This document shows, in pieces, positions 9,093-31,974 of a DNA stretch of 64,000 nt (positions are counted from its first letter, which is position 1; each line of letters begins with the position of its first letter). The DNA is from an uncultured Alphaproteobacteria bacterium (GTDB lineage Bacteria > Pseudomonadota > Alphaproteobacteria > ATCC43930 > CGMCC-115725): positions 253,041 through 317,040 of the forward strand of contig CAWBIT010000004.1 in assembly GCA_963789025.1 (NCBI GenBank), in the 5' to 3' direction. The translations under genes and the position numbers were made by a program. The notes under the pieces were generated by a model. That model made no database searches and was not told the DNA's origin. It saw only the letters and a list, made by a program, of their open reading frames with translations.

Positions 9093-9335
9093 CTACCTCG
9101 GCGCTCTGGGCTTACTCGGGTCGGCACCCGCGTGCCGGCACAGTGTCTTCACATAAGCGGTGCGGCCGATCTCGGCTGCGAGCGCCGAGCGGGCGATGAC
9201 ATCCTGCCAGCCCATCACGCAGGAGAGCTCGTTCTCGACCCCGGTCGATAGGACATCGGCGGCGGTCGTCTCGTCGCACGCCTCCGGGGCGATCGTGTTG
9301 AGGCAGATCAGGATCACCGCAACGAACGGATTCAT
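9093..9335 (-). CDS. Small Cys-containing hypothetical protein, directly abutting the pqqE stop
   Basis: 80-aa ORF whose ATG (9335) is the base next to the pqqE stop codon (9336-9338). Hydrophobic N-terminus MNPFVAVILICLNTIAP and four Cys residues. Confidence 0.4.
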   Translation of the reverse strand: MNPFVAVILICLNTIAPEACDETTAADVLSTGVENELSCVMGWQDVIARSALAAEIGRTAYVKTLCRHAGADPSKPRAPR

Positions 9336-10466
9336 TCACCCGAGAGCTGGTGAAGATACGGTCTCGGGTGATCGGCCCGGCGCGGCGGAATGCTGGCGAT
9401 AGACAAATCGGGGCGCGGTTTCGTCCGCGTCCGCGCGGGCGCCGACGAGCAGCTCGCGGTCCGGGGACAATGTGCAAGCCGGGTCGGTGCGCGCGGCATC
9501 GCCGGTCAGCGCAAAAGCCTGGCAGCGGCAGCCGCCCCAGTCGATCTCGCGCCGTTCGCAGGAGCGGCAGGGCTCCGGCATCCAATCCGTCCCGCGAAAC
9601 CGTTCGAACGCGGAAGAACGATACCAGATGTCGGAAAGGCTCGCTTCGGCTACGGACGGAAAATCGAGCCCTGTCAAGGTCTCCGCCGCGTGGCACGGCA
9701 GCACCTTGCCCGCCGGGGTCACGTTCATGAAGCGCCGGCCCCAACCGCCCATGCAGGCCTTTGGGCGATGGGCGTAGTAGTCGGGGAGCACGTAATCGAT
9801 CACCAGGACCCCGGCGAGGCGTCTGCGAGCGGCTTCGACAGCGGCGGTGGCGGCATCCAACTGATCGCGGCTCGGCAGCAACGCCGCCCGATTGCGCAAG
9901 GCCCATCCGTAATACTGCACGTGAGCGACTTCGAGCCGATCGGCGCCGAGCGCCACGGCCAATTCGATCATCTCGCCGAGCCGGTCGAGGTTTTGCCGGT
10001 GCACGACCGCGTTAACCGTCAATGGCAGACCGGCCTCGCGGACGAGGCGCGCTGCCCGTCGTTTGGCCTGTTGCGCCCCGAGGAGCCCGGCGATGCGGTC
10101 GCCGGACATCATGTCGGCATCCTGAAAACTGAGCTGGACATGCTCGAGCCCGGCCTCGACCAGCACCGCGAGCCGGCCGGCATCGAGATTTATGCCGGAG
10201 GTGATCAGATTGCCGTAGAGCCCGACTTCGGCCGCATGACGCACGAGATCGGCGAGGTCGCGCCGGACGAGCGGCTCACCCCCGGAGAAGTGGACCTGCA
10301 GAACGCCGAGCGCCGCAGCCTCGCCGAGCACCCGCTTCCAGCTTGCGGTATCGAGTTCGCCGCTGGCGCGCGATAGTTCGAGCGGGTTCGAGCAATAGGG
10401 ACAGCGCAGCGGGCACCGATGGGTCAGCTCGGCCAGCATTGCCAGCGGCGGGTCGACTGCCGTCAT
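9336..10466 (-). CDS. pqqE: PQQ biosynthesis radical-SAM protein PqqE
   Basis: [11 protein letters not shown] radical-SAM cluster motif, a C-terminal SPASM-type Cys cluster, and position after pqqD with an ATGA overlap. Confidence 0.95.
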
Positions 10467-10756
10467 AAACGCAGCACTTTTTTGTCGACGAGATCCTGCA
10501 GCATCTTAATGACGTCGCTGGCGATGACGTCGCGCGGCGCGTCGTAGCGACCGGCGAGTTCGTCGATGACGCCGTCGATGGCGCGCTTCCCGTCGATCAG
10601 CTGCAGGATTTCAACGGCCTGCTCGTCAGGCAACATGAGCCGCTCCGGCGCGAGCACGATCCATGCCTGCCGAACCTCGTCGAAGCGGAACCTTGTGTGC
10701 GGGGCAAAGCGCAGAACGGTATCGCCCTCGACCGATAGACGCGGCTCGCCCGTCAT
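10463..10756 (-). CDS. pqqD: PQQ biosynthesis peptide chaperone PqqD
   Basis: 97 aa starting at MTGEPRLS. This ATG overlaps the pqqC stop (ATGA). The track ORF 10463-11068 over-extends into pqqC. Confidence 0.85.
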
Positions 10757-11496
10757 TGCGCCGTCCGGCCGGGGACAAAGGCGCCCGGCGGGGTCAGTCC
10801 CGGCTCGACATAGGCGAAGTAGAGGGCGTCGAGCTGCGCCCAGAGCACGTCGCATTTGAACCGCAAGGTGTCGCGCACGAGCGCCTGCTTCTCGGCAGTG
10901 TCGGCGTGTTCTTTGACGTAGGCGAGGGCGAAGGCGACATCGGTAGGGGCCTGGGTCAGCCGCGGCGTGAAATAGGCGAGCGTGTCGCGGCTGATGAAAT
11001 CGTAGTTCTTCAGCAGACCCTCGACCCGCTCGGCGATGATCTCGGGTGAGAACATCTCGGTGAGGCACGAGGCGACGGCTTCGAGCAGCGACCGGTCGCG
11101 CACGAAATTGACATAGGCGTCGACCGCGAAGCGGGTAGCCGGCAACAGCCCCTTGGTCGAGATCACATATTCGCGATCGAGCCCGAGCCCGTCGGTCAGC
11201 CTGAGCCAGCGCGCGATCCCGCCGGTGTCCTCGCTCTCGCCGTCATGATCGATGATGCGCCGGCGCCATTCCCGGCGGAGCGCCGGCGTCGGCAGGCGCG
11301 CGACCAGATAGGCGTCCTTTGCCGGAATGCGAGCCTGATAGTAATAGCGGTTGAGCGCCCACGCCTGGACCTGACCGCGATTGAGCTTGCCGTCGCGCAT
11401 CAGGTGATGAAACGGATGGCGATGGTGGTAGCGCTCCTCGCCGATCTGCCGCAGGGCACTCTCGAGATCCGGCCCGGAGAGTAGGGACCCGCTCAC
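10753..11496 (-). CDS. pqqC: Pyrroloquinoline-quinone synthase PqqC
   Basis: 247 aa with YHHRHPFHHLMRDGKL and ...RYYYQARIP..., characteristic of PqqC. Operon position fits. Confidence 0.95.
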   Translation of the reverse strand: MSGSLLSGPDLESALRQIGEERYHHRHPFHHLMRDGKLNRGQVQAWALNRYYYQARIPAKDAYLVARLPTPALRREWRRRIIDHDGESEDTGGIARWLRLTDGLGLDREYVISTKGLLPATRFAVDAYVNFVRDRSLLEAVASCLTEMFSPEIIAERVEGLLKNYDFISRDTLAYFTPRLTQAPTDVAFALAYVKEHADTAEKQALVRDTLRFKCDVLWAQLDALYFAYVEPGLTPPGAFVPGRTAQ

Positions 11497-12419
11497 AGCC
11501 TCACCTCCATGCCGTCATAGGCGATCTCCCAACCGGCGGCTTCGGCGAGTTGTCGTTCCGGCGAATCGTCGAGCAATACCGGGTTCGAGTTGTTGATGTG
11601 GATAAAGATGCGGCGCTTCACACCCAGATCGCGGAAGGCGGCAATCGCGCCATCGTCGCCGCTCATGCTGATATGCCCCATTCGCCGGCCCGTCTTGTTC
11701 CCGACGCCGAGCTGGATCATCTCGTCGTCGCGCCAAAGGGTCCCGTCGAAAAACACCAGCTCGCTCCCAATCAGGCGCTGGCGCAGCCGGTCGGTCATCG
11801 CCGCGCAACCGGGGATGAAAAAGATGGATTTCTCGGCCGCGGTGTCGATGATCTGGAGACCCACCGCATCGCCCTCTTCTGCGATTCCCGGGTCTTGCCC
11901 GTCCTTTTCGAGATAGAGCGGGACTTTTGCCGGCACGGCGAACGCGACGACTGCCATTCCCGAAGGATCGACGGTCCCCGCAAGCTCGATCCGCCGATCG
12001 AGGGGCAATTCGACGCGCTCGACGCAATCCGGAGCGAGAACATGAAAAATCGGATTCGCCGCGATAACCGCGAGAACCCGCGCCGGAGCATAAACCGAAA
12101 AGCGATGCCGCTCGCGCAGGTGAAGCAACCCCGCGACGGCGTCGACATCGCCACCGGGGACCAGTACGCCGGCGATCGGCGACGACCTCAGCCCTTCGTG
12201 GGGGTGGAGAGCGAGGGTTGCCTCGATCTGCAGCCGCAGATCGGGCGAGGCGTTCAGAACGAACCAGTCGTGCCCGTTCGCCGAGACCGCGAGCGAAGCC
12301 TGCGTTCTCGGAACCGCGGTCTTATCTCCGGCGCGCGCCCGCCGACATGCCGGCGCGTTGGAATTCCATTGCGGGAAACCCCCGCCGGCGGCAGACCCGA
12401 GGACAACCACGTCGAGCAT
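11493..12419 (-). CDS. pqqB: PQQ biosynthesis protein PqqB (metallo-beta-lactamase fold)
   Basis: MLDVVVLGSAAGGGFPQWN N-terminus is typical of PqqB. Lies between pqqA and pqqC and overlaps the pqqC start. Confidence 0.9.
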   Translation of the reverse strand: MLDVVVLGSAAGGGFPQWNSNAPACRRARAGDKTAVPRTQASLAVSANGHDWFVLNASPDLRLQIEATLALHPHEGLRSSPIAGVLVPGGDVDAVAGLLHLRERHRFSVYAPARVLAVIAANPIFHVLAPDCVERVELPLDRRIELAGTVDPSGMAVVAFAVPAKVPLYLEKDGQDPGIAEEGDAVGLQIIDTAAEKSIFFIPGCAAMTDRLRQRLIGSELVFFDGTLWRDDEMIQLGVGNKTGRRMGHISMSGDDGAIAAFRDLGVKRRIFIHINNSNPVLLDDSPERQLAEAAGWEIAYDGMEVRL

Positions 12420-12462
12420 CGGTCGTCTCGCCGGATCCGACCGGCGTCAGAAAACGAGGAGC

Positions 12463-12543
12463 CTACTTGACCTCCGCACAGGCGTAAGCGTTGATCTCAA
12501 GCCCGACTGCGATTTCGATGATGACCGGCGTCTTCCACTTCAT
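12463..12543 (-). CDS. pqqA: PQQ precursor peptide PqqA
   Basis: 26-aa MKWKTPVIIEIAVGLEINAYACAEVK carries the conserved E-x-x-x-Y (EINAY) from which PQQ is made. It is hidden at the 3' end of the 93-aa track ORF 12463-12744. AAGGAA Shine-Dalgarno precedes the ATG at 12543. Confidence 0.9.
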   Translation of the reverse strand: MKWKTPVIIEIAVGLEINAYACAEVK

Positions 12544-13398: not shown

Positions 13399-14049
13399 TC
13401 AGCGGACGGGAGGAGGGCCGGTATCGCAATCGGCCAGACCGTGCTGAATGGCGATGCGGATTAAATCGGCGGTGCTCTCCGCCCGCAGCTTCGCTTTGAT
13501 TTGGCTGCAGTTGTTCGCAGCAGTCTTGTATCCGATGCCGAGTGTGTCGGCGATTTGGACGAGGTTGCGGCCTTGCGTCAGCAAACGCAGGATTTCGAGA
13601 TCGCGCGAGGAGAGGTCTTCGAGCGGGTGCGGTGGGGTTCGGATGCTCGAGAATACGAGTTCTTCGGCAATCTCGTGTTCGACATAGGTGCGACCGCCGG
13701 CAACGCGTCTGATTGCTTCGAGAAGCTCTTCCGGAGGGACGGTCTTGCTGGCATAGCCCGCTGCCCCCGCCTGCAGCGCGCGCGTCACATGGATACGGTC
13801 GTCGTGCATGCTGAGAACCAGAATGCGCGCATCAGGATCAATGATCTTCAGGCGCGCGATGATCTCGAGACCGCTGATATCGGGCAAGTTCAGATCGAGG
13901 ATGACGAGGTCTGGGCGCCTTCTCCGGAAGGCGCCCAGCGCCTCTTTTCCGCTCGCCGCCTCCTCAACCTCCACTGCCGGCTCGGCGGCGAGCAATCGTC
14001 GCAATCCGGCCCGGACTATCGGGTGATCATCGACGATCAGAATCTTCAC
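13399..14049 (-). CDS. Response regulator, NarL/FixJ (LuxR-type HTH) family
   Basis: MKILIVDDHPIVRAGL receiver domain with the phospho-acceptor Asp context (DLVILDLNLPD) and a C-terminal LuxR HTH (LTQGRNLVQIADTLGIGYKTAANN). Confidence 0.9.
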   Translation of the reverse strand: MKILIVDDHPIVRAGLRRLLAAEPAVEVEEAASGKEALGAFRRRRPDLVILDLNLPDISGLEIIARLKIIDPDARILVLSMHDDRIHVTRALQAGAAGYASKTVPPEELLEAIRRVAGGRTYVEHEIAEELVFSSIRTPPHPLEDLSSRDLEILRLLTQGRNLVQIADTLGIGYKTAANNCSQIKAKLRAESTADLIRIAIQHGLADCDTGPPPVR

Positions 14050-15467
14050 GGCTCGGCCGACTGCACCGAGGAGGATAGCGGGTCCGACGTCTGCAGATCG
14101 GGCAGCACGGCGACCACCGCGAAGCCTTCGTTGGATTTGTTCGAAATGCTCAAGCGCCCACCGACCGCGCTGACGCGCTCGCTTATGCCAATGAGGCCAT
14201 AACCCAATTTGTCCGGGTCGCGCATTCCCCGGCCGTCATCCGCGACCGTGAGCCTGATCTCGTCGCGTTCCCGCTCGATCGAGATGGCAATGCAGTTGGG
14301 TTCGGCATGGCGCAGGGCGTTGCTCAGAGCCTCCTGGACGATACGGCAGATCGCCGTCCCGACGACATCCACGAGATCCTCGCATTCCGCCGCGACCGCC
14401 ATCTCGTAACGGATCTCGGGACGGCGGCGGCGCCAGAATGCGACCAAATTCTCGATCGCCTCGCGCAAGCCAAATTCGGCGAGCCCGATCGGGCGCAACC
14501 GGCCGAGCATGCGTCTGACCTGCCGTTGCATGTGGCGAACGGCCTCGACGATCGACCCGACATGGAGGGCGGCCTCGCTCGCGCGACCATCCTCTATCAG
14601 CCGGCAGGCGGTAGCCGCGTCGGCGTTGATCGCGAAGAGATAGGGGCTCACCTCATCGTGCAGGTCGCGGGCGAGCTCGCTGCGCTCCTCCTCCTGCAAC
14701 GTCAGAAGCCGCTCGTTAAGACGGCGGTTCTCGGCGGCGGCTTCCGCAAGCCGCGCCGCCATCCGATTGAAACTGTCGCGCAACCGCGCCAGGTCCGGCG
14801 CCAGCCGGCCGCCGATCCGGATAAGGTAATGGCCGTCGCCGACCTCCTCCAGCGCAGCGGCCAGCCGGTCGAGCGGCCGCAAAGTGCGGCCGATAAAAAC
14901 ATAAATGAGCAGGATCGTGAGACCGCCGAACACGGCGAGGGTCGCAAGGCTCTCGGCGAGCTCGTTCCAGACTTCGAGCGTCTCGTTGTACGGATCGGTC
15001 TCGATCACGATCGTGCCGTAATCGCGGCCGCCGACGGCGATAGGGATTTGCTCGGTCTCGGGCGAAACTCCGATGAGGCGCACAAACCATGCCGGCGGGC
15101 GGCCGAATTTCGATTTCTCCATGGACGGCGCGGCGAAGGCCGGCGTCTCCCCGGCGTGCCGTACCCGCAGGTGACGATTGCCCTGGAAGGACGCCACCAA
15201 ATCATCGACATCGCGCGACGGGTCTCGGGCGTTCTGAAGGCGGTCGATCGCGCTCTCGATGGTCTGTCGCCCGACCAGAAAGGCCGCGCGCATCTCGGTA
15301 CGAACCGAGCGCGAGGCGTTGGAATACGCGGTTATGCCGGCCAGCGCGAGGCTGATCAGCAGCACGACGCAGACCAGGCCGATCAGACGGAACCGAAGCG
15401 ACATAGGGGGCCCGCCGGGCGTTGCATATCCGACTTTGCAGGATGCCATTACCCGATACCGATGCAT
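14046..15467 (-). CDS. Sensor histidine kinase, NarX/DesK-like (HAMP + HisKA_3 + HATPase)
   Basis: H-box LARDLHDEVSPYL, G-box DDGRGM...GYGLIGISERV, two TM segments and an overlap with the downstream regulator. An alternative start at 15404 (MSLRF) is possible. Confidence 0.85.
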   Translation of the reverse strand: MHRYRVMASCKVGYATPGGPPMSLRFRLIGLVCVVLLISLALAGITAYSNASRSVRTEMRAAFLVGRQTIESAIDRLQNARDPSRDVDDLVASFQGNRHLRVRHAGETPAFAAPSMEKSKFGRPPAWFVRLIGVSPETEQIPIAVGGRDYGTIVIETDPYNETLEVWNELAESLATLAVFGGLTILLIYVFIGRTLRPLDRLAAALEEVGDGHYLIRIGGRLAPDLARLRDSFNRMAARLAEAAAENRRLNERLLTLQEEERSELARDLHDEVSPYLFAINADAATACRLIEDGRASEAALHVGSIVEAVRHMQRQVRRMLGRLRPIGLAEFGLREAIENLVAFWRRRRPEIRYEMAVAAECEDLVDVVGTAICRIVQEALSNALRHAEPNCIAISIERERDEIRLTVADDGRGMRDPDKLGYGLIGISERVSAVGGRLSISNKSNEGFAVVAVLPDLQTSDPLSSSVQSAEP

Positions 15468-15591: not shown

Positions 15592-17919
15592 ATGCCCGAC
15601 CTCAGGCACGTGTTACAAGCGCTCGGCTTGGCAACGGTCCTGCTCTCTGGCGCCGCGGCGGCGCAACAACCCGCCGCGGCGCCGGCGCTGAGCCTGCCCA
15701 CCGTGGAGGTGGTCGGCGCGACGCCGCTCCTCGGCTCCGGGGTCGATCGCGACAAGGTGCCGGCCGAGACGCGGGTTCTCACCGACCAGGACATCAGCCG
15801 GAACGGCTACCCGCAAGCATTGCGCGCGCTCAACGAGAACGTGCCGGGCGTCACGCTCGATGCCGCCGCCGGCAATCCGTTTCAACCCAACCTCGTCTAT
15901 CACGGTTTTCTCGCCTCGCCCCTGCAAGGCAATCCGCAAGGCCTCGCGGTCTATGTCAACGGGGTCCGTTTCAATCAGCCGTTCGGCGACACGGTCAATT
16001 GGGATTTGATCCCCGACCTCGCGATCGACCGCATGGACCTCGTCGGCTCCAACCCTGTCTTCGGTCTCAACGCCCTCGGCGGCGCATTGTCGGTGCGGAT
16101 GAAAAACGGGTTTACCTACCAGGGCGGCGAGGTTGACCTGCTGGGCGGCTCGTTCCAGCACTATCAGGGAAACCTGCAATACGGCATCCAAAGCGACAAT
16201 ACCGCGGCCTATGTCGCAGTCACCGGCCTGGATGAAGGCGGCTGGCGCGATCTGCAATCATCCGACCTCGGCAATTTTTACGGCGATCTCGGCTGGCGCG
16301 GCAATCACGGCGAAGTCCATATCAATGTTACTGCGGCCCAGACGCGGCTCAACGGCCCCGGCACCTCACCGGTCCAGCTGCTGGCGATCGATCCCGCTGC
16401 GCAGTTCACCGCTCCAAATCTGATCACCAACAAGTATACGCAAGCCAATCTGACCGGGTCTTACGATATCAACGACACAACCTCGCTGCAGGGGCTGGCC
16501 TACTACACCTTTCTCTTGCAGAAGGTCTATAACGGCAATGTTCCGAATCTATCACCGTGCAATGACGGCTCCGGCTTTCTATGCGAGGCGCCGGGTGTCT
16601 TCGGGACCGATCGCAATGGCAACCCGATCCCCGATTTTCTCAATGGCGGCCCTTATTCCGACCTCGACCAGCAGTCGACCAATACCAACGGCTATGGCGC
16701 CTCGCTTCAGGTTACCAACCGCGACCAGCTCTTTGGTCATCCCAACCAGCTGATCGCAGGCTTCAGCTTCGACGGCGCCCAGACCCTGTTCAGCGCGAGC
16801 ACGCAAATCGGCGGATTATCTTTGTCAGATCGTGTGTTCGCCGGACCCGGGATCACCATCGATCAGGCCGATGGTTCGATCGCGCCGGTGCGCGTCGGGA
16901 TCTCCAACGCTTATTACGGCGCGTTCTTCACCGACACCTTGGATTTCACCTCGCAACTTTCAGGTAACGTGGCCGGGCGCTTCAATCTCGCGCAAATCGA
17001 TTTGAACGATCAGCTGGGTAGCGCGTTGACCGGGAATCACACCTACAGCCGCTTCAACCCGGCTGGCGGGCTGACCTACAAGATCCTTCCCGCTCTGACG
17101 GTCTATGCCAGTTACGCCGACGCCAATCGGGCGCCAACTCCGGCGGAACTTACCTGCTCCAGTGCCGCCAGCCCATGCAGCCTCGCCAATTTCTTCACCG
17201 GCGACCCCAATTTGCAGCAGGTCGTTTCGCACACGATCGAGGCGGGTCTGCGCAGTCAGTTTCAGCCCTTCGAGGGCGCGACCCTGTCTTCGAACATCGC
17301 CTATTATCGCAGTACCTTGAACAACGACATCCTGTTCGTGAACAGTCCGATCCAGGGCCGTGCGTTCTTTCAGAATGTCGGGACGACTCTTCGCCAAGGG
17401 GTCGATATCGGTGTCCAGCTCAAGACCGACCGCTTGCTCGCCTGGATCGCCTATTCCTATATCGACGCAACGTTCCAGACCGGCTTTACGGCGTCCAGCA
17501 ACAACAACCCGGGCGCCGACGCCAACGGTAATATCCAAATCCAGCCTGGCAACCATTTGTCCGGCATCCCCGCCAATCTCGGCAAGCTCGGCGTCGATTA
17601 TAAGGTAACCGACGCCTGGACGGTCGGCGGGACGGGGATAGCGGGCAGCGGGCAGTACCTGTTCGGCGATGAAGCCAACCTGACCCCGAAGACCCCGCCC
17701 TATTTTGTGCTCAACCTGCATACCAGTTATCAGATCTCCAAAAACCTGCAGCTCTTCGGGCTGATCGAGAACGCGTTCAACGTCAGATATTACACTTTCG
17801 GCACCTTCTCGCCGACTTCGTCCGTGTTCATCGCCCAGGCACCGGGCGCCACCAACCCGCGCAGCTATAGCCCGGCCGCACCGATCGCCGGCACCGTCGG
17901 CGTCCGCCTTACCTTTTGA
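15592..17919 (+). CDS. TonB-dependent outer-membrane receptor
   Basis: Signal peptide, plug-domain motifs (...VEVVGATP..., NPQGLAVYVNGVRFN), a long beta-barrel with alternating pattern, and a C-terminal ...GVRLTF. Confidence 0.9.
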   Translation: MPDLRHVLQALGLATVLLSGAAAAQQPAAAPALSLPTVEVVGATPLLGSGVDRDKVPAETRVLTDQDISRNGYPQALRALNENVPGVTLDAAAGNPFQPNLVYHGFLASPLQGNPQGLAVYVNGVRFNQPFGDTVNWDLIPDLAIDRMDLVGSNPVFGLNALGGALSVRMKNGFTYQGGEVDLLGGSFQHYQGNLQYGIQSDNTAAYVAVTGLDEGGWRDLQSSDLGNFYGDLGWRGNHGEVHINVTAAQTRLNGPGTSPVQLLAIDPAAQFTAPNLITNKYTQANLTGSYDINDTTSLQGLAYYTFLLQKVYNGNVPNLSPCNDGSGFLCEAPGVFGTDRNGNPIPDFLNGGPYSDLDQQSTNTNGYGASLQVTNRDQLFGHPNQLIAGFSFDGAQTLFSASTQIGGLSLSDRVFAGPGITIDQADGSIAPVRVGISNAYYGAFFTDTLDFTSQLSGNVAGRFNLAQIDLNDQLGSALTGNHTYSRFNPAGGLTYKILPALTVYASYADANRAPTPAELTCSSAASPCSLANFFTGDPNLQQVVSHTIEAGLRSQFQPFEGATLSSNIAYYRSTLNNDILFVNSPIQGRAFFQNVGTTLRQGVDIGVQLKTDRLLAWIAYSYIDATFQTGFTASSNNNPGADANGNIQIQPGNHLSGIPANLGKLGVDYKVTDAWTVGGTGIAGSGQYLFGDEANLTPKTPPYFVLNLHTSYQISKNLQLFGLIENAFNVRYYTFGTFSPTSSVFIAQAPGATNPRSYSPAAPIAGTVGVRLTF

Positions 17920-18015
17920 AGATCCTCTCCCGCCCACCCGGCGATTAACGATATTGCCGGGTCCGCTCCTTCGGAGATAGAATCCCGCGGTCGGCATCAC
18001 CCTGGGAGGCACGCC

Positions 18016-18468
18016 ATGGTCAAGTTGCGCGTCAACGGCCAGGAACAGTCGTTCGACGGCGATCCGTCGATGCCGCTGCTCTGGTACTTGCGGGACGAGT
18101 TGGGGCTCGCCGGAACAAAGTACGGCTGCGGCGTCGCGCTGTGCGGGGCGTGCACCGTGCACGTCGACGGCCAGGCCACCCGCGCCTGCGTCACCGCGAT
18201 CAACGATGTTTCGGGCCGCTCGGTGACGACGATCGAGGGGCTCGATCCGCAAGGCAACCACCCGGTGCAGAAGGCGTGGCGCGCCTTCAATGTCCCGCAA
18301 TGCGGGTATTGCCAGTCCGGCCAGATCATGCAGGCCGCCGCGCTGCTCGCCACTAACAAGAACCCGTCCGAGGACCAGATCAACAGCGAGATGAGCGGCA
18401 ACATCTGCCGCTGCGGCTGCTACCAGCGCATCACCGCCGCCATCAAGGCGGCCGCCACGGGAGCGTGA
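18016..18468 (+). CDS. (2Fe-2S)-binding small subunit of a molybdopterin oxidoreductase (IorA / aldehyde-dehydrogenase small-subunit type), copy 1
   Basis: [11 protein letters not shown] and NICRCGCY cluster motifs. 150 aa. Confidence 0.9.
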
Positions 18469-18469
18469 C

Positions 18470-20755
18470 ATGAGCGCCGTCCACGCCACCATCGAGAATG
18501 TGAGCCGCCGCGGCTTCCTGCGGGGCTTGATCGCGACCGGCGGCCTGGTCGTCGCCGCCGAATTCGTGCCGGCCCGCGCCGCGCTCGCGACCTTCGCCAC
18601 CGGCGCGGCCAAAATGCCCGGCGGGGTCGTCAGCGACCCGCATGTCTTTGTCTCGATCGACCCCAGCGGCCTCGTGACGATCGTCGCGCACCGCGCCGAG
18701 ATGGGCACCGGCTCGAAGACCAGCCTGCCAATGGCGGTCGCGGACGAGCTCGAAGCCGACTGGTCGCGCGTGAAGGTCGTGCAATCGCCTGGCGATGAGA
18801 AGAAATACGGCAACCAGAACACCGACGGTTCGCGCAGTCTGCGCCATTTCATCCAGCCGATGCGCGAATGCGGCGCCGCAGCGCGGCTCATGCTCGAAAT
18901 CGCCGCCGCGCAGCGCTGGAACGTTCCGGTCAGCGAGGTGCAGGCGCAGAACCATGAGGTCATCCACAAGCCCTCGGGCCGCAAGCTCGGCTATGGCGAC
19001 CTCGCGGCCGCCGCGAGCGCATTGCCGATGCCGCCCGCCGACCAGATCAAGCTCAAGGACGAATCCGCGTTTCGCTATCTCGGCAAAGGCAACGTCCAGA
19101 TCGTCGATCTGTTCGACATCACGACCGGCCGCGCCGTCTACGGCATCGACACCAGGCTCGCCGGGCTGAAATATGCGGTCATTGCGCGGCCGCCGGTCAT
19201 GGGCGGCAAGCTCGCCTCCTATGACGGCAGCGCCGCGATGAAGGTGCCGGGCGTCGAGAAGATCGTCGTCATCGAGGGCACGCCGCCGCCATCGAAGTTT
19301 CAGCCGATCGGCGGCGTCGCGGTCATTGCCCGCAACACCTGGGCGGCAATCAAGGGGCGCGACGCGCTGGTCATCAAGTGGGATGACGGGCCGCACGCCA
19401 GTTACAATTCGGCCGCTTACAAGGCCCAGCTGGAAGAAACCGCGCGCAAGCCGGGTAAGGTCGTGCGGGATGAAGGCGATGCCGAGAAGGCCCTAGGATC
19501 CGCTGCGAAGATGGTGTTCGCGGAATATTACGCCCCGCATCTCGCTCATGCCCCGATGGAGCCGACTTGCGCGACGGCGCGCGTCGCCAACGGCAAGTGC
19601 GAGGTTTGGGCGGCAGTGCAGAGCCCCGGCGGCACGCAAAACGAGCTGGTCGAGAAGCTTGGCCTCAAGCCGGAAGATGTGACGGTCAACGTCACCCTGC
19701 TCGGCGGCGGCTTCGGCCGGAAGTCAAAGCCCGACTTTGTGCTCGAGGCGGCATTGCTGTCGCGCGAGATGGGAGGCGCCCCGGTCAAAGTCACATGGAC
19801 GCGCGAGGACGACCTCCACCACGATTATCTGCACACGGTCTCGGCCGAGCGCATCGATGCCGGGCTCGACGCGCAAGGCCACGTCGTCGCTTGGCGCCAC
19901 CGCACCGTCGCGCCGACCATCCGGGCCACCTTTGTCCCGGACCCGAAATTCGAGACGCCAGGGGAGCTCAGCCTAGGCGTGCTCGACGTGCCGTTCAATA
20001 TCGCCAACCTGCGTTGCGAGGTGGGCGAAGCCGAGGCGCACACCCGCATCGGCTGGTTCCGCTCGGTGTCGAACATCCCGCACGCCTTTGCGATTCAGTC
20101 GTTTGTCGCCGAGCTCGCCCATGCGGCAGGACGCGACCCCAAGGACATGCTGATCGAGCTGCTCGGGCCGTCGCGGCTCGTGAAGCCGCCCGCCGAATAC
20201 ACCAATTACGGCGACCCGCTCGAAACCTACCCGATCGATACGGCGCGATTGCGGCGCGTCGTCGATCTCGTCGCCGACAAGGCGGAATGGGGCAAGAAAT
20301 TGCCGCCCAGGCACGGCCAGGGCATCGCTGTGCATCGCAGCTTCTTGAGCTATGTCGCCACCGTCGTCGAGGTTGCGGTCGACGACAAGGGAAAGCTGAC
20401 GGTGCCGCGCGTCGACAGCGCGATCGATTGCGGCTTTGCCGCCAACCCCGAGCGTATATACTCGCAAGTGGAAGGGGCGGCGGTGATGGGGCTGAGCCTC
20501 GCGCGCTATGGCGAGATCAGCTTCAAGAACGGGCGCGTCCAGCAAAACAACTTCGACGGCTTTCAGGTCCTGCGCATCGACGAGTCGCCGCCGATCACGC
20601 ATGTCTGGATCGTGCCCAACGGGATCGACGTGCCGTCGAGCGGCGTCGGCGAGCCGGGGTTGCCGCCCTTCGCGCCGGCTTTGTGCAACGCGATCTTCGC
20701 CGCGACCGGCAAACGTATCCGGCGTCTGCCGATCGGCAACCAGCTGGCGACCTGA
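18470..20755 (+). CDS. Molybdopterin-binding large subunit (IorB / xanthine-dehydrogenase family), TAT-exported, copy 1
   Basis: Twin-arginine leader [24 protein letters not shown] and GVGEPGLPP motifs of the aldehyde-oxidase/XDH family. Starts 1 nt after the small-subunit stop. Confidence 0.9.
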
Positions 20756-20924: not shown

Positions 20925-22649
20925 ATGCGAATGCAAAAATGGATGTGGGGCGGCTTGGCGGCAGCATCGGCTCTATGGTCGTTAGCTGCGGCTGCCGCCG
21001 AGATCGGCAACTACAGCCCGGTCACAGCCGACCGGCTCACCAACCCCGAACCCGGCAACTGGATGCTCTACCGCCGCACCTATGACGGCCAGGGCTACAG
21101 CCCGCTCGACAAGATCAACACGACCAACGTCAAGAGCCTGGAGCCGGCGTGGACATTTTCGACCGGCGTCATCGAAGGTCACGAGGCGCCGCCGATCGTC
21201 AACAACGGCGTCATGTTTGTGGCGACGCCGATGAACCAGGTCATCGCCCTCGACGCCAAGACTGGCGACCAAATTTGGCGCTACAAGCGGGAATTGCCCG
21301 AAGACCTGACGCAGCTGCATCCGACGAGCCGCGGCGTCGGGCTCTGGCAGGACAAGCTCTACCTCGCCACCACCGATGATCACCTGGTGGCGCTCGACGC
21401 CAAGACCGGCAAGGTGGCGTGGGACCAGAAGGTCCAGGATTACAAGAAGGGACAGTACATGACCTTGATGCCGTTGGTGGTTAACGGCAAGGTCCTCGTC
21501 GGTGGCTCGGGCGGCGAATATGGCGTACGCGGCTATGTCGTCGCCTATGACGCCAACGACGGCAAGGAACTGTGGCGCACCTTCACCATTCCCGGGCCAG
21601 GTGAGCCCGGCCACGAGACCTGGCAGGGCGACGACTGGAAGAGCGGCGGCGGCTCGGCCTGGATGACCGGAAATTACGATCCCGCCCTGAACCTCGTGTA
21701 CTGGGGCGTCGGCAACGCCGCGCCGTGGCCCGGCGACCTGCATCCCGGCGACAACCTTTACACCAGTTCGGTCCTGGCGCTCGATCCCGGCTCCGGAAAG
21801 ATCAAAGCCTACCACCAGTACCACCCGAACAACTCGTGGGACTGGGACGAAGTCGAGGCGCCGATGCTGATCGATCTGCAAAAAGACGGGCAGACGATCA
21901 AGAGCCTCGTCCATCCCGGCCGCGACGCCATTTTCTGGGTGTTGGAGCGCAAGCCGGACAAAATCGATTTTGTCGCGGGATGGCCGTTTGTTTACACCGA
22001 CGTGTGGAAGTCGATCGACCCTGAGACCGGCAAGCCCACCGCCGACCCCGATCACAAGCCCGCGCTCGGTAAAAAGATCGCGTTCTGCCCCTCGCTGTGG
22101 GGCGGCAAGGACTGGCCGTCCGCCGCCTACAGCCCGAAGACGCACTTGGTCTACGCGCCGGCGCAGAATAACTTCTGCGGCAGCTTTGTCGGCGCCAAGG
22201 AGCCGCTCGAGCCCGGCAAGCTGTGGCTCGGGACAAAAGAATCGGACATCCTCTTAACCGAGCGTCCGGGCGCGGATCACTTCGGCGAACTTCAGGCCTG
22301 GGACCCGGCGACCGGCAAGAAGGCATGGCAGCATAATTTCCGCTGGCAGCTGATGGCCACCGTACTCGCCACCGGTGGCGACCTCGTCTTTGTCGGCGGC
22401 ACCAACGACCGCATGTTCCGCGCCTTCGACGCCAAGACCGGAGACCTGCTGTGGGAGCAGAAGACCAACTCCGGCATTACCGGCGCCCCCGTCGCCTTTG
22501 CGGTCGACGGTACGGAATACATCGCCGTGCAGTCCGGCTGGGGCGTTGACGCCGAGCGCATCCAGGACAAACTGGCGCAAGCCAATATCGGCGTCAGCGA
22601 CAACGTTCCCCAGGGCGGCGTCGTCTGGGTGTTCAAGGTGAAGCAGTAG
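20925..22649 (+). CDS. PQQ-dependent dehydrogenase, methanol/ethanol (type I ADH/XoxF-like) family, atypical, copy 1
   Basis: Signal peptide and eight-bladed propeller W-motifs (...APPIVNNGVMFVAT..., GGSGGEYGVRGYV, GGGSAWMTG, DNLYTSS, SWDWDEV). Confidence 0.9.
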   Translation: MRMQKWMWGGLAAASALWSLAAAAAEIGNYSPVTADRLTNPEPGNWMLYRRTYDGQGYSPLDKINTTNVKSLEPAWTFSTGVIEGHEAPPIVNNGVMFVATPMNQVIALDAKTGDQIWRYKRELPEDLTQLHPTSRGVGLWQDKLYLATTDDHLVALDAKTGKVAWDQKVQDYKKGQYMTLMPLVVNGKVLVGGSGGEYGVRGYVVAYDANDGKELWRTFTIPGPGEPGHETWQGDDWKSGGGSAWMTGNYDPALNLVYWGVGNAAPWPGDLHPGDNLYTSSVLALDPGSGKIKAYHQYHPNNSWDWDEVEAPMLIDLQKDGQTIKSLVHPGRDAIFWVLERKPDKIDFVAGWPFVYTDVWKSIDPETGKPTADPDHKPALGKKIAFCPSLWGGKDWPSAAYSPKTHLVYAPAQNNFCGSFVGAKEPLEPGKLWLGTKESDILLTERPGADHFGELQAWDPATGKKAWQHNFRWQLMATVLATGGDLVFVGGTNDRMFRAFDAKTGDLLWEQKTNSGITGAPVAFAVDGTEYIAVQSGWGVDAERIQDKLAQANIGVSDNVPQGGVVWVFKVKQ

Positions 22650-22697: not shown

Positions 22698-22773
22698 CTT
22701 GGCGGCGGCAAGGTCGTCGCCGGGGTATTTTTACTGTATGCAACGCCTCTGGGCAGACGAGGGAGGAGACCCG

Positions 22774-23226
22774 ATGGTCAAGTTACAGGTCAACGGCCAG
22801 GCGCAGTCCTTCGATGGCGATCCATCGATGCCGCTGCTCTGGTATCTGCGGGATGAGCTGGGGCTCACCGGGACGAAATACGGCTGCGGCGTGGCGCTGT
22901 GCGGCGCCTGCACGGTCCATATCGACGGTCAAGCCTCGCGTGCTTGTGCCACGGCGATAAGCGATGTCGCCGGGCGCTCGGTGACGACGATCGAGGGGCT
23001 CGATCGCGACGGCAATCACCCGGTACAGAAGGCTTGGCGCGCCTTGAATGTTCCGCAATGCGGCTACTGCCAAGCCGGGCAGATCATGCAGGCCGCGGCG
23101 CTGCTGGCGACGACGAAGAATCCGTCCGAGGCCGAGATCAACGACGCCATGAGCGGCAACATCTGCCGCTGCGGCTGCTACCAGCGCATCACCGCCGCTA
23201 TCAAGGCGGCTGCCACAGGAGCCTGA
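22774..23226 (+). CDS. (2Fe-2S)-binding small subunit, copy 2
   Basis: [31 protein letters not shown]... is nearly identical in pattern to 18016-18468. Start set at the ATG at 22774, preceded by GGGAGGAG; the track start at 22699 lies in the REP element. Confidence 0.9.
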
Positions 23227-23227
23227 C

Positions 23228-25579
23228 ATGACCCCAGTCCACGTCGTTATCGAGAATGTCAGCCGCCGTGGCTTCCTCAAGGGAGTGCTCGCCACCGGCG
23301 GTCTCGTCATCGCCGCCGAGTTTGTGCCGGCGCGGTCCGCGCTCGCCGCTTACACCACCGGCGCCGGGAAGATGCCTCACGGCGTAAAGTGGGATCCCCA
23401 CATCTTTGTTTCGATCGCGCCCGACGGCACCGTGACCATCGTTGCCATTCGCTCGGAGATGGGCACCGGCTCGCGCACCAGCCTGCCGATGGTCGTCGCC
23501 GACGAAATGGAAGCCGATTGGTCGCGCGTGCGCGTTGCGCAAGCGCCGGGCGACGAGGAGAAATACGGCAATCAGGACACCGACGGCTCGCGCAGCCTGC
23601 GCCACGGCATCCAGCCGATGCGCCAATGCGGCACCGCCATCCGGCAGATGCTGGAGACCGCCGCAGCGCAGCGCTGGGGCGTCGATCCCGGCGAGGTCCA
23701 GGCGCAGAACCACGAGGTCGTACACAAACCCTCGGGGCGCAAGCTCGGCTATGGCGAGCTGGCCGCCGACGCCAGCGCCCTGCCGACGCCACCGGTCGAT
23801 CAAATCAAGCTCAAGGATCCCGCCGCCTTCCGGTACATCGGGAGGGGCACGACGCCGATCGTCGATCTCTTCGACATCACCACCGGGCGTGCGATCTACG
23901 GTATCGATGCCAAGCTTCCCGGTATGAAATATGCGGTCGTCGCCCGGCCGCCGGTGTTCGGCGGCAAGGTCGTGTCCTTCAATTCCGATGCCGCGATGAA
24001 GATCCCGGGCGTCGAGAAGGTCGTGACCATCGAGGGCACGCCAGCGCCGGCCAAGTTCCAGCCCCTGGGCGGAGTCGCGGTCATCGCGGGCAATACCTGG
24101 GCGGCGATCAAGGGACGCGAGGCACTCCAAGTGACCTGGGATGACGGTCCGAACGGCTCCTACAATTCGGCGGCTTTCAAAGCGCAGATCGAGGAGACGG
24201 CACGCCAGCCGGGCAAGGTCGTGCGCAACGACGGCGACGCCGAGAAGGCGCTGGCGTCGGCCGCCAAGGTAGTCTCGGCAGAGTATTACATCCCGCACCT
24301 CGCGCATGCGACGATGGAGCCGCCGAGCGCAACCGTGCGCATGAGCACCGAATCGACCAACCAGACTGTCGGCGAGTCTACAATGCGGATGGGCGCCGGC
24401 GGGAAGTGCGAGGCTTGGGCCTGCGTGCAAAGCCCCGGCAACACGCGGGAAGAACTCGCCAAGAAGCTCGGTTTGAAAGAAGAGGACGTGACCGTCCATG
24501 TCACGCTGTTGGGCGGCGGCTTCGGCCGCAAGTCGAAATGCGATTTCGTTCTCGAAGCGGCGGTACTGTCGAAGGCGATGGGCGGCGCTCCGGTGAAAGT
24601 GATCTGGACGCGCGAGGACGACCTGCGGAACAGCTACTACCACACCGTCTCCGCCGAACGCATCGATGCCGGCCTCGATGCGACCGGCAAGGTGATCGCC
24701 TGGCGGCATCGCAGCGTCGCACCGACCATCTTGTCGATCTTCAAACCCGACCAGACGCACGAGGCGCCGTTCGAGCTGGGCATGGGCTTGGTCGACGTGC
24801 CGTTCGACATCCCCAACCTGCGCTGCGAGAACGGCGAGGCGGAGGCCCATACGCGCATCGGCTGGTTCCGCTCGGTGTACAACATCCCGCACGGCTTCGC
24901 CGTCCAGTCCTTCGCCGCCGAGCTCGCCAACGCAACCGGGCGCGACCCCAAGGAGATGCTGCTCGCGCTGATCGGGCCGCCCCGCATCGTCGATCCCCGC
25001 AAATCGCCCGACGTCGCCGATTTCTGGAACTACGGTGACCCGTTCGAGACCTACCCGATCGACACCGCGCGGCTCACGCGTGTCGTCGAGCTCGTGGCGC
25101 AGAAGGCAGACTGGGGCCGCAAGCTGCCGGCGCGGCATGGTCTCGGCATCGCCGTCCATCGCAGCTTCCTCACCTATGTCGCGACCGTCGTCGAAGCGGC
25201 AGTGGACCAGAAGGGCCATGTGACGGTGCCGCGGGTCGACACCGCGATCGATTGCGGCTTCGCCGCCAATCCCGAGCGCATTCGCTCACAGATCGAAGGC
25301 GCGGCGGTGATGGGGATGGGTCTCACGCTCTATGGCGAGATCACGTTCAAAAAAGGCGGCGTCGAACAGAGCAACTACGACGGTTACCGAGTGCTTCGCA
25401 TCGACGAGTCGCCGCCGGTCACCGATGTGCATATCGTCCCCAATGGAATCGAGGTGCCGTCGAGCGGCGTCGGTGAGCCGGGGCTGCCGCCTTTTGCGCC
25501 GGCGCTGTGCAACGCGATCTTCGCCGCCACCGGCAAGCGCATCCGCCGCCTGCCGGTCGGCGATCAGCTGGCGGCGTAG
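23228..25579 (+). CDS. Molybdopterin-binding large subunit, TAT-exported, copy 2
   Basis: [15 protein letters not shown] twin-arginine leader. Collinear with 18470-20755 apart from a ~17-codon insertion near 24343-24393. Confidence 0.9.
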
Positions 25580-25729: not shown

Positions 25730-26323
25730 TTGTGCTTGGGGGAATGGGGTGGTCGTGATTGTCCGTGCAGTGCCCGCCCGATCGACCGGCGCAGGGCGCT
25801 TGAGTTGGGGCTGGGCCTCGCGCTCGTGCCCGGTCTGGCGTTGGCGCAAACCGATGCGGCGCACGAACGGCCGCGCGAAGGCGATGTTTTGGTCGTGGTT
25901 GGTGCTACTCCCCCGGAGCCGCTGAAACCCGACGATTTGAAGCTCGACGCCAAACAGACTTTCGCGTGGCCGATGGATCCTGAGACCAAGACCGTGCGCA
26001 ACGGCTCGCGGCTCAACAAGGTGCTGCTATTGCGCCTCGACCCTGAAGGCTTCGACACCGAGACCAAGGAGCGTACCGCTGACGGTGTTGTCGCCTATTC
26101 GGCGATATGTGTGCACACCGGTTGTGACGTGACCAGCTGGGACCCCAATCGCCAGCTGCTCCAATGTCCCTGTCATTACTCGACTTATGATCCGAAGGAA
26201 GCGGCTAAGGTTGTGAGTGGGCCGGCGCCACGACGCCTGCCGGCGCTGCCACTGAAAATCGTCGATAGCCGGCTAGTCGTTGCAAAGCCGTTCACTGGAC
26301 GGGCCGGTTTCCAACAGATGTGA
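25730..26323 (+). CDS. TAT-exported Rieske (2Fe-2S) domain protein
   Basis: CVHTGCDV...CPCHYSTYD Rieske ligands and a twin-arginine leader IDRRRALELGLGLAL. The start is uncertain (TTG at 25730 or 25736); the track ATG at 25610 lies inside the REP element. Confidence 0.75.
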   Translation: MCLGEWGGRDCPCSARPIDRRRALELGLGLALVPGLALAQTDAAHERPREGDVLVVVGATPPEPLKPDDLKLDAKQTFAWPMDPETKTVRNGSRLNKVLLLRLDPEGFDTETKERTADGVVAYSAICVHTGCDVTSWDPNRQLLQCPCHYSTYDPKEAAKVVSGPAPRRLPALPLKIVDSRLVVAKPFTGRAGFQQM

Positions 26324-26349
26324 CCCCAAGAAAATCGAGGAGAGACGCC

Positions 26350-28128
26350 ATGCAGAAAAAACGTCATCGCCATTACGTGCTCGCGGCGAGCGGGTTGGCG
26401 CTGGTATTGGCCGCTGCAACAGCCTCGGCGCAGCAGCCGCTGCCGCCGCTGCCGACGCCGGACACGCCACCTCCGGTGCCGCCGATATTGCAGAGCTACA
26501 AGCCTGTGACACCGGACGAGCTCAAACAGCCGCAAGATGGCGACTGGCTGATGTACCGCCGCACCTATAATGGCTGGGGCTATAGTCCCCTGTCGCAGAT
26601 CACGGCGGAAAACGTCGGCAAGCTGAAACCAGTGTGGACCTTGGCGACTGGTCAGGTCGAAGGCCACCAGGCGCCGCCGATCGTCAACAACGGCGTGATG
26701 TTCGTCGCGACCCCGGGCAATCAGGTGCTGGCCATCGACGCCAAAAAGGGTGACGTGCTGTGGCGGTTCAAGCGGCCAATCCCGGAAGACATGCTGCTGC
26801 TGCACCCGACGAGCCGCGGTGTCGCCCTGCTCGGGGACAAGGTTTACTTCGCCGCGGCCGATGCCGTGCTCGTGGCGCTCGATGCCAAGACCGGCAAGGA
26901 GGTTTGGAAGGCGCCGGTCGAAGACTACACGCACGGATATTATATGTCATTGGCACCGCTCGTCGCCGACGGCAAGGTGATGGTCGGCGTCTCGGGCGGC
27001 GAACTCGGTGTTCGCGGCTTTGTCGCTGCGTTCGACGCCGAGACCGGCAAACCGCTCTGGAAAACCTACACCGTACCGGCGCCCGGCGAACCGGGCAGCG
27101 AGACCTGGCCCAAGGGCGACCAGTGGAAGACAGGCGGCGGCTCGGTGTGGATTACCGGCGCCTACGATCCCGAAACAGGTCTCAGTTTTTGGGGGACCGG
27201 CAATGGCGGGCCGTGGATGGGGGACCAACGGCCGGGGGACAATCTCTACACCTCATCCGTGCTGGCGCTCGACACTGCGACCGGCAAAATCAAGGGATAC
27301 CATCAATATCACCCCAACGACTCGTGGGATTGGGACGAAGTCTCGCCGCCGATCCTCGTCGATTACCAGCACAATGGTAAGACGATTAAGGGTCTCGTCG
27401 ATGTCGCACGGGACGGCTATCTCTGGGAGCTTGAGCGCACCCCTGACAAGATCAACTTCATAGACGGCAAGCCCTTTGTGAAGCAGAACGTCTTCCTCAG
27501 TCTCGATCCCGAGACCGGGCGGCCCAATGTCGACCCCACTCGCCAACCGGCGACGGGAAAGAAGGCCGATTTCTGTCCTTCGCTGTGGGGCGGCAAGGAT
27601 TGGCCGCCGGTCGCCTACAGCCCGAAGACACGGTTATTGTATATCCCCGCGAATGACAATCTGTGCGGCACATCGATTGGCGAACCAGTCACCTACACCC
27701 CGGGGCAACGTTATGTAGGGGCAACGACAACCCTCTATATCGCGCCGGGCGCCGATCACATCGGCGAGCTGCAAGCCTGGAACCTCGATACCGGACAGAA
27801 GGCCTGGAGCCATCCCTTTGCCAACTCGCAGCTCTGGGGCCCAGTGCTCGCGACGGCCGGCGGGGTCGTGTTCGCGGGCGGCACCAACGACCGGTATTTC
27901 CGCGCCTTCGACGCCTCGAACGGCAAGACCTTATGGGAATTCCGCACCAGCTCCGGGGTGAATGGGGTGCCGGTCTCGTTCCAGATTGACGGCAAGCAAT
28001 ACATCGCCGTGCAGTCGGGCTGGGGCGTCGACGCGGCACGCATGCAGGCCCGCCTCAACCTGGTGCGCCCGTGGGAGTTCCCTGATGTGCCGCAGGGCGG
28101 CTCGGTCTGGGTGTTCGCCGTCGATTAG
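26350..28128 (+). CDS. PQQ-dependent dehydrogenase, methanol/ethanol family, atypical, copy 2
   Basis: The ATG at 26350 is preceded by GAGGAGAG; the track ATG at 26320 overlaps the Rieske stop and remains an alternative. Signal peptide and the same propeller motifs as copy 1 (SWDWDEV, LHPTSRG). Confidence 0.9.
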   Translation: MQKKRHRHYVLAASGLALVLAAATASAQQPLPPLPTPDTPPPVPPILQSYKPVTPDELKQPQDGDWLMYRRTYNGWGYSPLSQITAENVGKLKPVWTLATGQVEGHQAPPIVNNGVMFVATPGNQVLAIDAKKGDVLWRFKRPIPEDMLLLHPTSRGVALLGDKVYFAAADAVLVALDAKTGKEVWKAPVEDYTHGYYMSLAPLVADGKVMVGVSGGELGVRGFVAAFDAETGKPLWKTYTVPAPGEPGSETWPKGDQWKTGGGSVWITGAYDPETGLSFWGTGNGGPWMGDQRPGDNLYTSSVLALDTATGKIKGYHQYHPNDSWDWDEVSPPILVDYQHNGKTIKGLVDVARDGYLWELERTPDKINFIDGKPFVKQNVFLSLDPETGRPNVDPTRQPATGKKADFCPSLWGGKDWPPVAYSPKTRLLYIPANDNLCGTSIGEPVTYTPGQRYVGATTTLYIAPGADHIGELQAWNLDTGQKAWSHPFANSQLWGPVLATAGGVVFAGGTNDRYFRAFDASNGKTLWEFRTSSGVNGVPVSFQIDGKQYIAVQSGWGVDAARMQARLNLVRPWEFPDVPQGGSVWVFAVD

Positions 28129-31945: not shown

Positions 31946-31974
31946 CTCCCAGTTTGTTCAGCCGGAGGACGAGA

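Follow-up and report, generated by a model that had tools for sequence, protein, structure and literature searches.

Two genes for dehydrogenases dependent on pyrroloquinoline quinone (PQQ), found in a stretch of DNA from an uncultured Alphaproteobacteria bacterium, raise the question of which metal such enzymes use and to what they pass their electrons when the ring of two adjacent cysteines, usually taken as a hallmark of type I enzymes, is missing. The stretch analysed (hereafter the window) comprises 64,000 nucleotides (assembly GCA_963789025.1, contig CAWBIT010000004.1, positions 253,041 to 317,040). PQQ alcohol dehydrogenases are, to our knowledge, the only known lanthanide enzymes, and an earlier note on this DNA had described the pair as members of a little-studied and probably lanthanide-dependent clade. 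The clade to which they belong is usually encoded just downstream of a gene for a Rieske [2Fe-2S] protein, and it is mainly this pairing, less the loop and D-x-D motifs of the enzymes, on which the interest of the locus rests. The joint reading, which we regard as probable if only narrowly so, is that both are lanthanide-type PQQ alcohol dehydrogenases of one clade, that the Rieske protein is their acceptor and that the molybdoenzyme IorAB carries out the aldehyde step.

Copy 1 (20925..22649, forward strand) is the third gene of an iorA1-iorB1-dehydrogenase unit and encodes 574 aa with a Sec signal peptide. Copy 2 (26320..28128, forward strand) encodes 602 aa when read from a GTG codon, a start at ATG 26350 being also plausible, and is 61% identical to copy 1. 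Both pass the curated cut-off of 480 bits for the methanol/ethanol PQQ-dehydrogenase family TIGR03075 (616.8 bits for copy 1 and 577.9 for copy 2) and miss that of 832.65 for the membrane-bound glucose/quinate dehydrogenases, TIGR03074, with 189 and 198 bits; their N-termini consist of Sec signal peptides only, with no N-terminal membrane domain. The best solved relative of both copies by sequence is the lanthanide enzyme PedH (6zcv; E=1e-103 and 7e-105), followed at similar distance by XoxF, quinohaemoprotein alcohol dehydrogenases, ExaA and MxaF, the identity to every solved structure being about 30-35%, with 29-35% for the solved XoxF and PedH structures. An AlphaFold2 (AF2) model of copy 1, of moderate quality (mean predicted local distance difference test 76, predicted template modelling score 0.82), has the eight-bladed propeller fold when compared with 30 solved chains of PQQ alcohol and methanol dehydrogenases (template modelling (TM) score 0.73-0.87) and superposes best on PedH (TM 0.85-0.87, 34% identity). 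Both genes are predicted to encode periplasmic PQQ-dependent alcohol-type dehydrogenases of the methanol/ethanol family.

The earlier note had placed Leu-His at the position of the Cys-Cys pair and had given the codons of this pair and of two aspartates in each copy, all at exact coordinates. In copy 1 the codons CTG CAT at 21315-21320 encode Leu131-His132, part of a Gln130-Leu131-His132 loop (21312..21320, forward strand) that codons and alignments place where the Cys-Cys ring would be, while in copy 2 CTG CAC at 26800-26805 encodes Leu161-His162. HMMER alignments were made with PedH (6zcv), two XoxF structures (6dam and 4mae) and the alcohol dehydrogenase ADH-IIB (1kv9), and a MAFFT alignment with the co-resident Bradyrhizobium XoxF5. 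In all five, the His sits opposite the Asp or Gly that directly follows Cys-Cys; the preceding Leu stands at the second Cys in four, and the alignment of copy 1 with PedH has Leu at the first Cys and a gap at the second. The absence of a vicinal pair is thus independent of register, as no cysteine occurs there in any of them, and the residues named by the note stand, whereas in most alignments its register is shifted by one residue. Only two cysteines occur in each protein (388 and 418 in copy 1, 419 and 449 in copy 2); they are non-adjacent, and from their position we take them to be probably the counterpart of the second, structural disulphide of methanol dehydrogenase.

The loop finds a parallel in the Escherichia coli membrane glucose dehydrogenase Gcd, with MAFFT aligning TQLH132PTSRG of copy 1 and SFQH262VTCRG of Gcd without a gap and at equal loop length. 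In modelling by Cozier and Anthony, His262 of Gcd reportedly occupies the place of the disulphide ring of methanol dehydrogenase. At the sequence level, the clade has swapped the vicinal Cys-Cys ring for a Leu and an invariant His in a glucose-dehydrogenase-like loop.

At the catalytic strand both copies read S-W-D-W-D-E-V. In copy 1, codons and alignments identify the catalytic Asp306 (GAC, 21840-21842) and the extra, lanthanide-type Asp308 (GAC, 21846-21848) in an Asp-Trp-Asp motif at 21840..21848 on the forward strand; copy 2 has Asp337 (GAT, 27328-27330) and Asp339 (GAC, 27334-27336), the latter being equivalent to Asp308 and aligned with the second Asp of PedH and XoxF. The D-x-D motif claimed by the note holds in the HMMER alignments, where D-W-D lies opposite D-F-D of PedH and D-Y-D of XoxF, with D-F-T in the Ca-type ADH-IIB. 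Copy 1 keeps Glu198, Asn264, Asp306, Asp308, Arg333 and the stacking Trp246 as PQQ and metal residues, and the Glu (in GGE), the Asn (in GN), the catalytic Asp, the Arg that follows the catalytic strand and the Trp are invariant in both copies and 27 relatives. Gcd carries D466-M-D468, but of the metal ligands it lacks Glu and Asn, both of which are present in copies 1 and 2. Because Gcd matches the loop His yet misses these two ligands, the predicted active site is a hybrid, which combines a metal site of the alcohol dehydrogenase/XoxF type with a glucose-dehydrogenase-type loop over PQQ.

The ligand set points to a light lanthanide as the metal. E. coli Gcd, by contrast to such enzymes, works with Mg2+ or Ca2+ in spite of its D-M-D. 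Since Gcd has this motif and since the Asp-bearing XoxF1 of 'Ca. M. oxyfera' was reported with Ca inside (PMC9291206), D-x-D is needed for lanthanide binding but is not sufficient. These two proteins also lend some weight to an unlikely alternative, that the enzymes are Ca2+-dependent or metal-promiscuous and that the second Asp is specific to the clade and without metal selectivity, as does the observation that none of the genes was recognised as having a lanthanide-specific uptake or chaperone function. However, both copies, unlike Gcd, retain the Glu, the Asn and both Asp residues just as PedH and XoxF do, their closest solved structure is that of a lanthanide enzyme, and the extra Asp is reported to be essential and predictive in XoxF and ExaF/PedH (PMC11996626; PMC12628762).

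The completeness of the ligand set also bears on whether the proteins are enzymes at all. Cofactor-less, non-catalytic propellers such as the 'acido-empty quinoprotein' homologues come to mind, as TIGR04528 (acido-empty-quinoprotein group A) ranks second among the NCBIfam matches with 380 and 394 bits. This identity was rejected: the scores fall well under the cut-off of 650, the threshold of TIGR03075 is exceeded, no PQQ or metal ligand has been lost, a pqq operon is adjacent and the protein of the probable Bradyrhizobium orthologue bll6220 was detected in soybean bacteroids (PMC6320959); we consider it highly improbable.

Relatives were sought in one genome per species with peptide patterns independent of the loop and D-x-D motifs, which yielded at least 556 confirmed relatives of at least 599 candidates; locus data refer to the best 80. 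The closest of these 80 loci come from Stellaceae and from Alphaproteobacteria metagenome-assembled genomes, the top three being 93-94% identical, and most of the remainder belong to Bradyrhizobium species at 76-78% identity. All 80 carry a QLHPT[SN]RGV-type loop and [SAL]WDWDEV, and because they were found without motif-based patterns, the two motifs are not a matter of chance. The XoxF5 encoded a few kb off in the same loci reads MCCDTVNRG and EWDYDGV. With its genome matches, which include dozens of Bradyrhizobium species, and its occurrence in soil metagenomes, the clade is widespread.

In a further comparison, copy 1 was scored against a 50%-identity clustering with 1.84 billion representatives. 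Among these, the full-length sequences closest to it (50-58% identity) have H-x-T-x-RG and DWDE, and the next, P0124 (50%) and P0128 (44%), have Cys-Cys and WDYDE. In the trees, all of them neighbour-joining and without support values, the His/DWDE sequences are monophyletic, sister to the Cys-Cys-bearing P0124 and P0128, and placed apart from the XoxF1-5 and type 2b (PedH/ExaF) clades. The little-studied clade of the note is thereby recovered as a separate, biochemically uncharacterised clade of the methanol/ethanol family. The same trees show that Cys-Cys was lost independently elsewhere in the superfamily, so that the absence of the ring, though uncommon among type I enzymes, is not unique. 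Statements on motif conservation are taken from the best 80 loci and the 50%-identity representatives; the set used for partner counts below was selected by motif, which makes motif invariance within it circular, and serves for these counts only.

In databases, members of the clade bear the automatic name "alcohol dehydrogenase (cytochrome c)". In Bradyrhizobium loci the gene order runs xoxF5, xoxG (CHVCH), a class III alcohol dehydrogenase (flhA), gfa, iorA and iorB, with the dehydrogenase and a Rieske gene following beyond iorB on the other strand. This order fits blr6213 (xoxF), blr6215 ("alcohol dehydrogenase") and bll6220 of B. diazoefficiens. The product of bll6220 is NP_772860, whose cluster entry holds automatic names only and which, in reference lists taken from Keltjens 2014, appears as "PQQ ADH type 6a" (ADH, alcohol dehydrogenase). 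Because of this match in gene order, and by synteny alone, the clade is probably the type 6a of Keltjens, typified by bll6220; Keltjens group 9 (M. silvestris Msil_2867/3733, with D-x-D) was set aside in favour of type 6a on the same ground. Some members of the type-6a group of a Methylobacterium survey lack Cys-Cys (PMC8561711), and a 2025 Bradyrhizobium study gives the functions of the other PQQ dehydrogenases as unknown (PMC12628762). A literature search on type 6a found no mention of a Rieske neighbour or of the His. As a separate observation, several metagenomic contigs (L136 6407-9606, L086 2599-6762 and L099 1-3489) have two to three tandem PQQ-propeller genes beside a cysteine-less member, which suggests that local duplication of these genes is frequent.

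With regard to the acceptor, the note was right that a cytochrome is missing, as CxxCH occurs zero times in the reading frames of at least 60 aa across the window. It was mistaken, however, in describing a locus without an electron acceptor, having missed a candidate directly upstream of copy 2. This Tat-exported (twin-arginine translocation) Rieske [2Fe-2S] gene (about 25736..26323, forward strand; Pfam Rieske, Tat motif and cluster boxes) lies between iorB2 and copy 2, its stop overlapping the GTG of copy 2 by 4 bp, and is the only open reading frame (ORF) with a Rieske motif in the window. The protein has a twin-arginine motif, DRRRALELGL, a cleavage motif, A-L-A|Q, and the cluster boxes CVHTGC and CPCH (CxHxGC...CxCH) with both disulphide cysteines of the high-potential type. 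Among solved structures it is closest to the respiratory Rieske protein from Thermus thermophilus (1NYK/3FOU), which it matches over the full length with E=5e-37; no curated NCBIfam cut-off is reached. The database gene call (P0271, 172 aa) starts at TTG 25805, past the twin-arginine motif. Because homologues of 187-207 aa keep this motif, the true start is probably TTG 25736 or 25730. Among the matches listed, the 120 closest Rieske homologues are all at least 77% identical.

The pairing was counted in those 147 cysteine-less clade members whose upstream sequence spans 800 bp or more, and 114 of them have a Rieske gene on the same strand within 700 bp upstream. Divided by source, these include 79 of 83 genome cases and 34 of 57 cases from a metagenome sample of greater divergence. 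The four genome exceptions (L001-L004) are orthologues of copy 1 from the lineage of the window itself; in L002-L004 a Rieske gene lies within the fetched flank, and the sequence of L001 ends inside iorB2. In every pair, the Rieske gene and the dehydrogenase gene point in the same direction, and L008 and L070 each have two tandem Rieske-dehydrogenase pairs that were duplicated as a unit. A conserved neighbour gene was looked for beside the Rieske-less members and none was seen. The literature search found no description of a Rieske partner for a PQQ dehydrogenase.

From gene order only, we infer electron transfer from the dehydrogenase to the Rieske protein. In the proposed scheme, reduced PQQ (PQQH2) would give up its electrons singly to the co-encoded Rieske protein, with no dedicated c-type cytochrome being involved, and from the Rieske protein they would reach a high-potential carrier or oxidase whose gene lies elsewhere. 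The adjoining periplasmic IorAB molybdoenzymes would oxidise the aldehyde product to the acid, which would make the locus a tandemly duplicated module for alcohol-to-acid oxidation; copy 1 would have lost its Rieske gene and would presumably share that of copy 2. The specific proposal that the Rieske protein, soluble or Tat-anchored, is the dedicated physiological acceptor of a His-loop, lanthanide-type PQQ alcohol dehydrogenase and forms with IorAB an alcohol-to-acid module independent of cytochrome c is put forward tentatively, our confidence in it falling somewhat short of even.

The two tandem units of the locus have the order iorA1-iorB1-copy 1 and iorA2-iorB2-Rieske-copy 2. IorA1 (18016..18468, forward strand; Pfam Fer2_2 and Fer2, NCBIfam) is the [2Fe-2S] small subunit of a molybdoenzyme of the xanthine oxidase family, and IorB1 (18470..20755, forward; Pfam MoCoBD_1 and MoCoBD_2) is its molybdopterin-binding large subunit with the Tat motif SRRGFLRG. 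The second copies, both assigned by Pfam and NCBIfam, are IorA2 (22774..23226, forward), again a [2Fe-2S] subunit, and IorB2 (23228..25579, forward), a molybdopterin subunit with a Tat motif. It is plausible that IorAB is a periplasmic aldehyde oxidoreductase, a function that remains putative. A promoter-like site at 17954-17983 precedes the first unit, and a terminator-like hairpin after copy 1 (22698..22724, forward; 12-bp stem and T run, a consensus match only) divides the two.

The presence of IorAB supplies a competing explanation for the Rieske gene. Flanked by iorB2 and copy 2, the gene could be associated with either of them, and it may serve IorAB or an unrelated process, with the dehydrogenases using a cytochrome c or cupredoxin encoded elsewhere. 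Molybdoenzymes with a Rieske small subunit do exist, arsenite oxidase AioB being among the Rieske matches, and an iorB gene lies within 4 kb of 69 of 78 Rieske-dehydrogenase pairs as compared to none of 11 Rieske-less metagenome dehydrogenases. The lack of a Rieske gene in the unit of copy 1 and the cytochrome c domains paired with some cysteine-less relatives would agree with this explanation as well. Nevertheless, in every pair the Rieske gene stands directly in front of the dehydrogenase gene and in its orientation, whereas iorAB occupies the opposite strand in 62 of the 69 cases; IorB is missing from the surroundings of nine Rieske-dehydrogenase pairs for which 4 kb or more is available on either side; Rieske and dehydrogenase genes were duplicated together in L008 and L070; and IorAB has a [2Fe-2S] subunit of its own. 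We therefore rate this explanation as unlikely, while acknowledging the evidence in its favour.

The earlier note had tied the loss of the disulphide to the absence of cytochrome c, and relatives of the two copies speak against a strict link. The protein encoded upstream of the cysteine-less representative P0122 (55% identical) ends in a cytochrome c domain (CASCH), and in P0121 a cytochrome-c-domain protein is fused to a cysteine-less dehydrogenase; in a few other clade members a c-type cytochrome ORF is adjacent. The partner in L081 (4404-5930) and P0121, of about 508 aa, combines a long acidic Gln/Asp-rich linker with a C-terminal cytochrome c domain and is placed before the cysteine-less dehydrogenase or fused to it, an architecture unusual for an electron partner. 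P0124, of the Cys-Cys-bearing sister group, has an N-terminal cytochrome c fusion. As two cysteine-less subclades have a cytochrome c partner, the two losses, of disulphide and of cytochrome, do not strictly go together. Neighbour-joining places the cytochrome-linked members in basal positions and distributes the Rieske-linked ones over most other subclades, and a plausible order of events would be a cytochrome-coupled ancestor, followed by loss of the ring and then by recruitment of the Rieske protein.

On the reading of the note itself, the locus would have no dedicated acceptor and the disulphide would have been lost since no cytochrome c is used. The window without any CxxCH and the unit of copy 1, consisting of IorAB and dehydrogenase only, are in line with this, and comparable reasoning exists for PQQ dehydrogenases of heterotrophic marine Thaumarchaeota that are likewise devoid of Cys-Cys, in some cases have DYD/DxD and were suggested to employ acceptors other than cytochromes (PMC7300363). 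Those proteins differ from the present ones in being archaeal, divergent and mostly membrane-anchored, and a Rieske partner is not described for them. Given the conserved Rieske gene and the cysteine-less relatives with cytochrome c partners, we hold the absence of any dedicated acceptor to be quite unlikely.

Several points weigh against the joint reading of a lanthanide enzyme coupled to a Rieske protein. Apart from the insufficiency of D-x-D and the lack of support values in the trees, the AF2 model, of moderate quality as mentioned above, carries no cofactors, and the literature search found no biochemical data for any clade member. About 22% of the clade members counted (33 of 147) have no upstream Rieske gene, and the transcription unit of copy 1 has none of its own. 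A cytochrome c domain is encoded upstream of, or fused to, the basal cysteine-less dehydrogenases, so that the clade can, judging from its gene content, use cytochrome c without the disulphide. Finally, adjacency fits an acceptor of the dehydrogenase, an acceptor of IorAB or a shared carrier alike.

Among characterised enzymes, the closest in kind is PedH/ExaF (type 2b, 6zcv), which shares the propeller family, the Glu/Asn/Asp/Asp set, the Arg and Trp contacts and Sec-dependent export to the periplasm. It differs in having the Cys-Cys ring instead of Leu-His and belongs to a separate clade at about 34% identity. The electron acceptor of PedH is a c-type cytochrome, whereas here a Rieske gene is the neighbour and the 64 kb hold no cytochrome. 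XoxF likewise has D-x-D, the PQQ ligands and a periplasmic location, and its gene commonly lies in the same part of the chromosome, the distance to the Bradyrhizobium orthologue being about 6 kb; in contrast, XoxF5 retains the cysteines in MCCDTVNRG, has its own cytochrome gene xoxG (CHVCH) downstream and is only 36-39% identical. E. coli Gcd resembles the two copies in lacking Cys-Cys, in His262 corresponding to His132 and in the presence of D-x-D, but has an N-terminal membrane domain, belongs to the TIGR03074 family and is without the Glu and Asn ligands. The acceptor of Gcd is ubiquinone, not cytochrome c. The Rieske protein, for its part, has the CxHxGC...CxCH boxes and disulphide cysteines of respiratory Rieske proteins (Thermus 1NYK, bc1/b6f and AioB) and a Tat signal like those of AioB and the bc1 Rieske proteins. 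Its gene is, however, not found beside cytochrome b/c1 or a bis-pyranopterin guanine dinucleotide (bis-PGD) molybdopterin subunit, the partner gene being that of a PQQ dehydrogenase.

The surroundings of the two units contain further genes of potential relevance. A complete pqqA-pqqB-pqqC-pqqD-pqqE operon for PQQ biosynthesis (9093..12543, reverse strand) lies 8 kb from the dehydrogenases; its first gene, pqqA (12463..12543, reverse), reads MKWKTPVIIEIAVGLEINAYACAEVK, and the pqqD ORF has no Pfam match. Between the operon and the dehydrogenase units are encoded a LuxR-type response regulator (13399..14049, reverse) and a sensor kinase with a LapD/MoxY periplasmic domain, HAMP and HisKA_3 (14046..15467, reverse), both assigned by domain scan. 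This pair is conserved beside the dehydrogenase locus in L001 and L004 and is possibly a metal- or alcohol-responsive regulator of the module. We take its architecture to recall that of the PQQ-dehydrogenase regulators MoxY/MxaY and PedS2/PedR2. Directly upstream of iorA1 is the gene of a TonB-dependent outer-membrane receptor (15592..17919, forward; Pfam Plug and TonB_dep_Rec), which is conserved in L001. From its position by the locus of a putative lanthanide enzyme, a role in metal uptake is possible. The receptor reaches no NCBIfam cut-off, its matches to haem, siderophore and PqqU receptors being weak and below cut-off, and an assignment as a lanthanide or PQQ transporter was rejected for want of any family cut-off reached.

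Other genes of the window were noted in passing. A GNAT acetyltransferase-like gene (8343-9086, reverse) follows pqqABCDE. Downstream of copy 2, a GH10 (xylanase-family) gene (28160-29314, reverse) with a Tat-like N-terminus contains one in-frame stop (...AENEMKWQVMN*GKPGDD...), past which the frame resumes unchanged, so that a pseudogene, a sequencing error or read-through is possible; a GH10 gene, intact or similar, also adjoins the Rieske-copy 2 pair in L003, L004, L108 and L121. Farther away, an ORF at 31684-33753 (forward) resembles, as judged by eye, a two-partner-secretion transporter of the ShlB/FhaC type, and an ORF of 2252 aa (38908-45666, reverse) with 84-bp and 186-bp tandem repeats may encode a large secreted repeat protein. 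These two lie near each other and are unrelated to the dehydrogenases.

Should the Rieske protein be the acceptor, the annotation "alcohol dehydrogenase (cytochrome c)" carried by the clade would be wrong about the acceptor, and the clade would represent a third coupling of PQQ enzymes to the respiratory chain, besides cytochrome c and ubiquinone, in a module found widely across Bradyrhizobium and further Alphaproteobacteria of soil. A natural variant would then be at hand in which to test what the disulphide ring contributes to electron transfer. If the metal is a lanthanide, the lanthanide-dependent metabolism of rhizobia would reach beyond XoxF, and the probable orthologue bll6220, whose protein is present in soybean bacteroids, offers a tractable genetic system.

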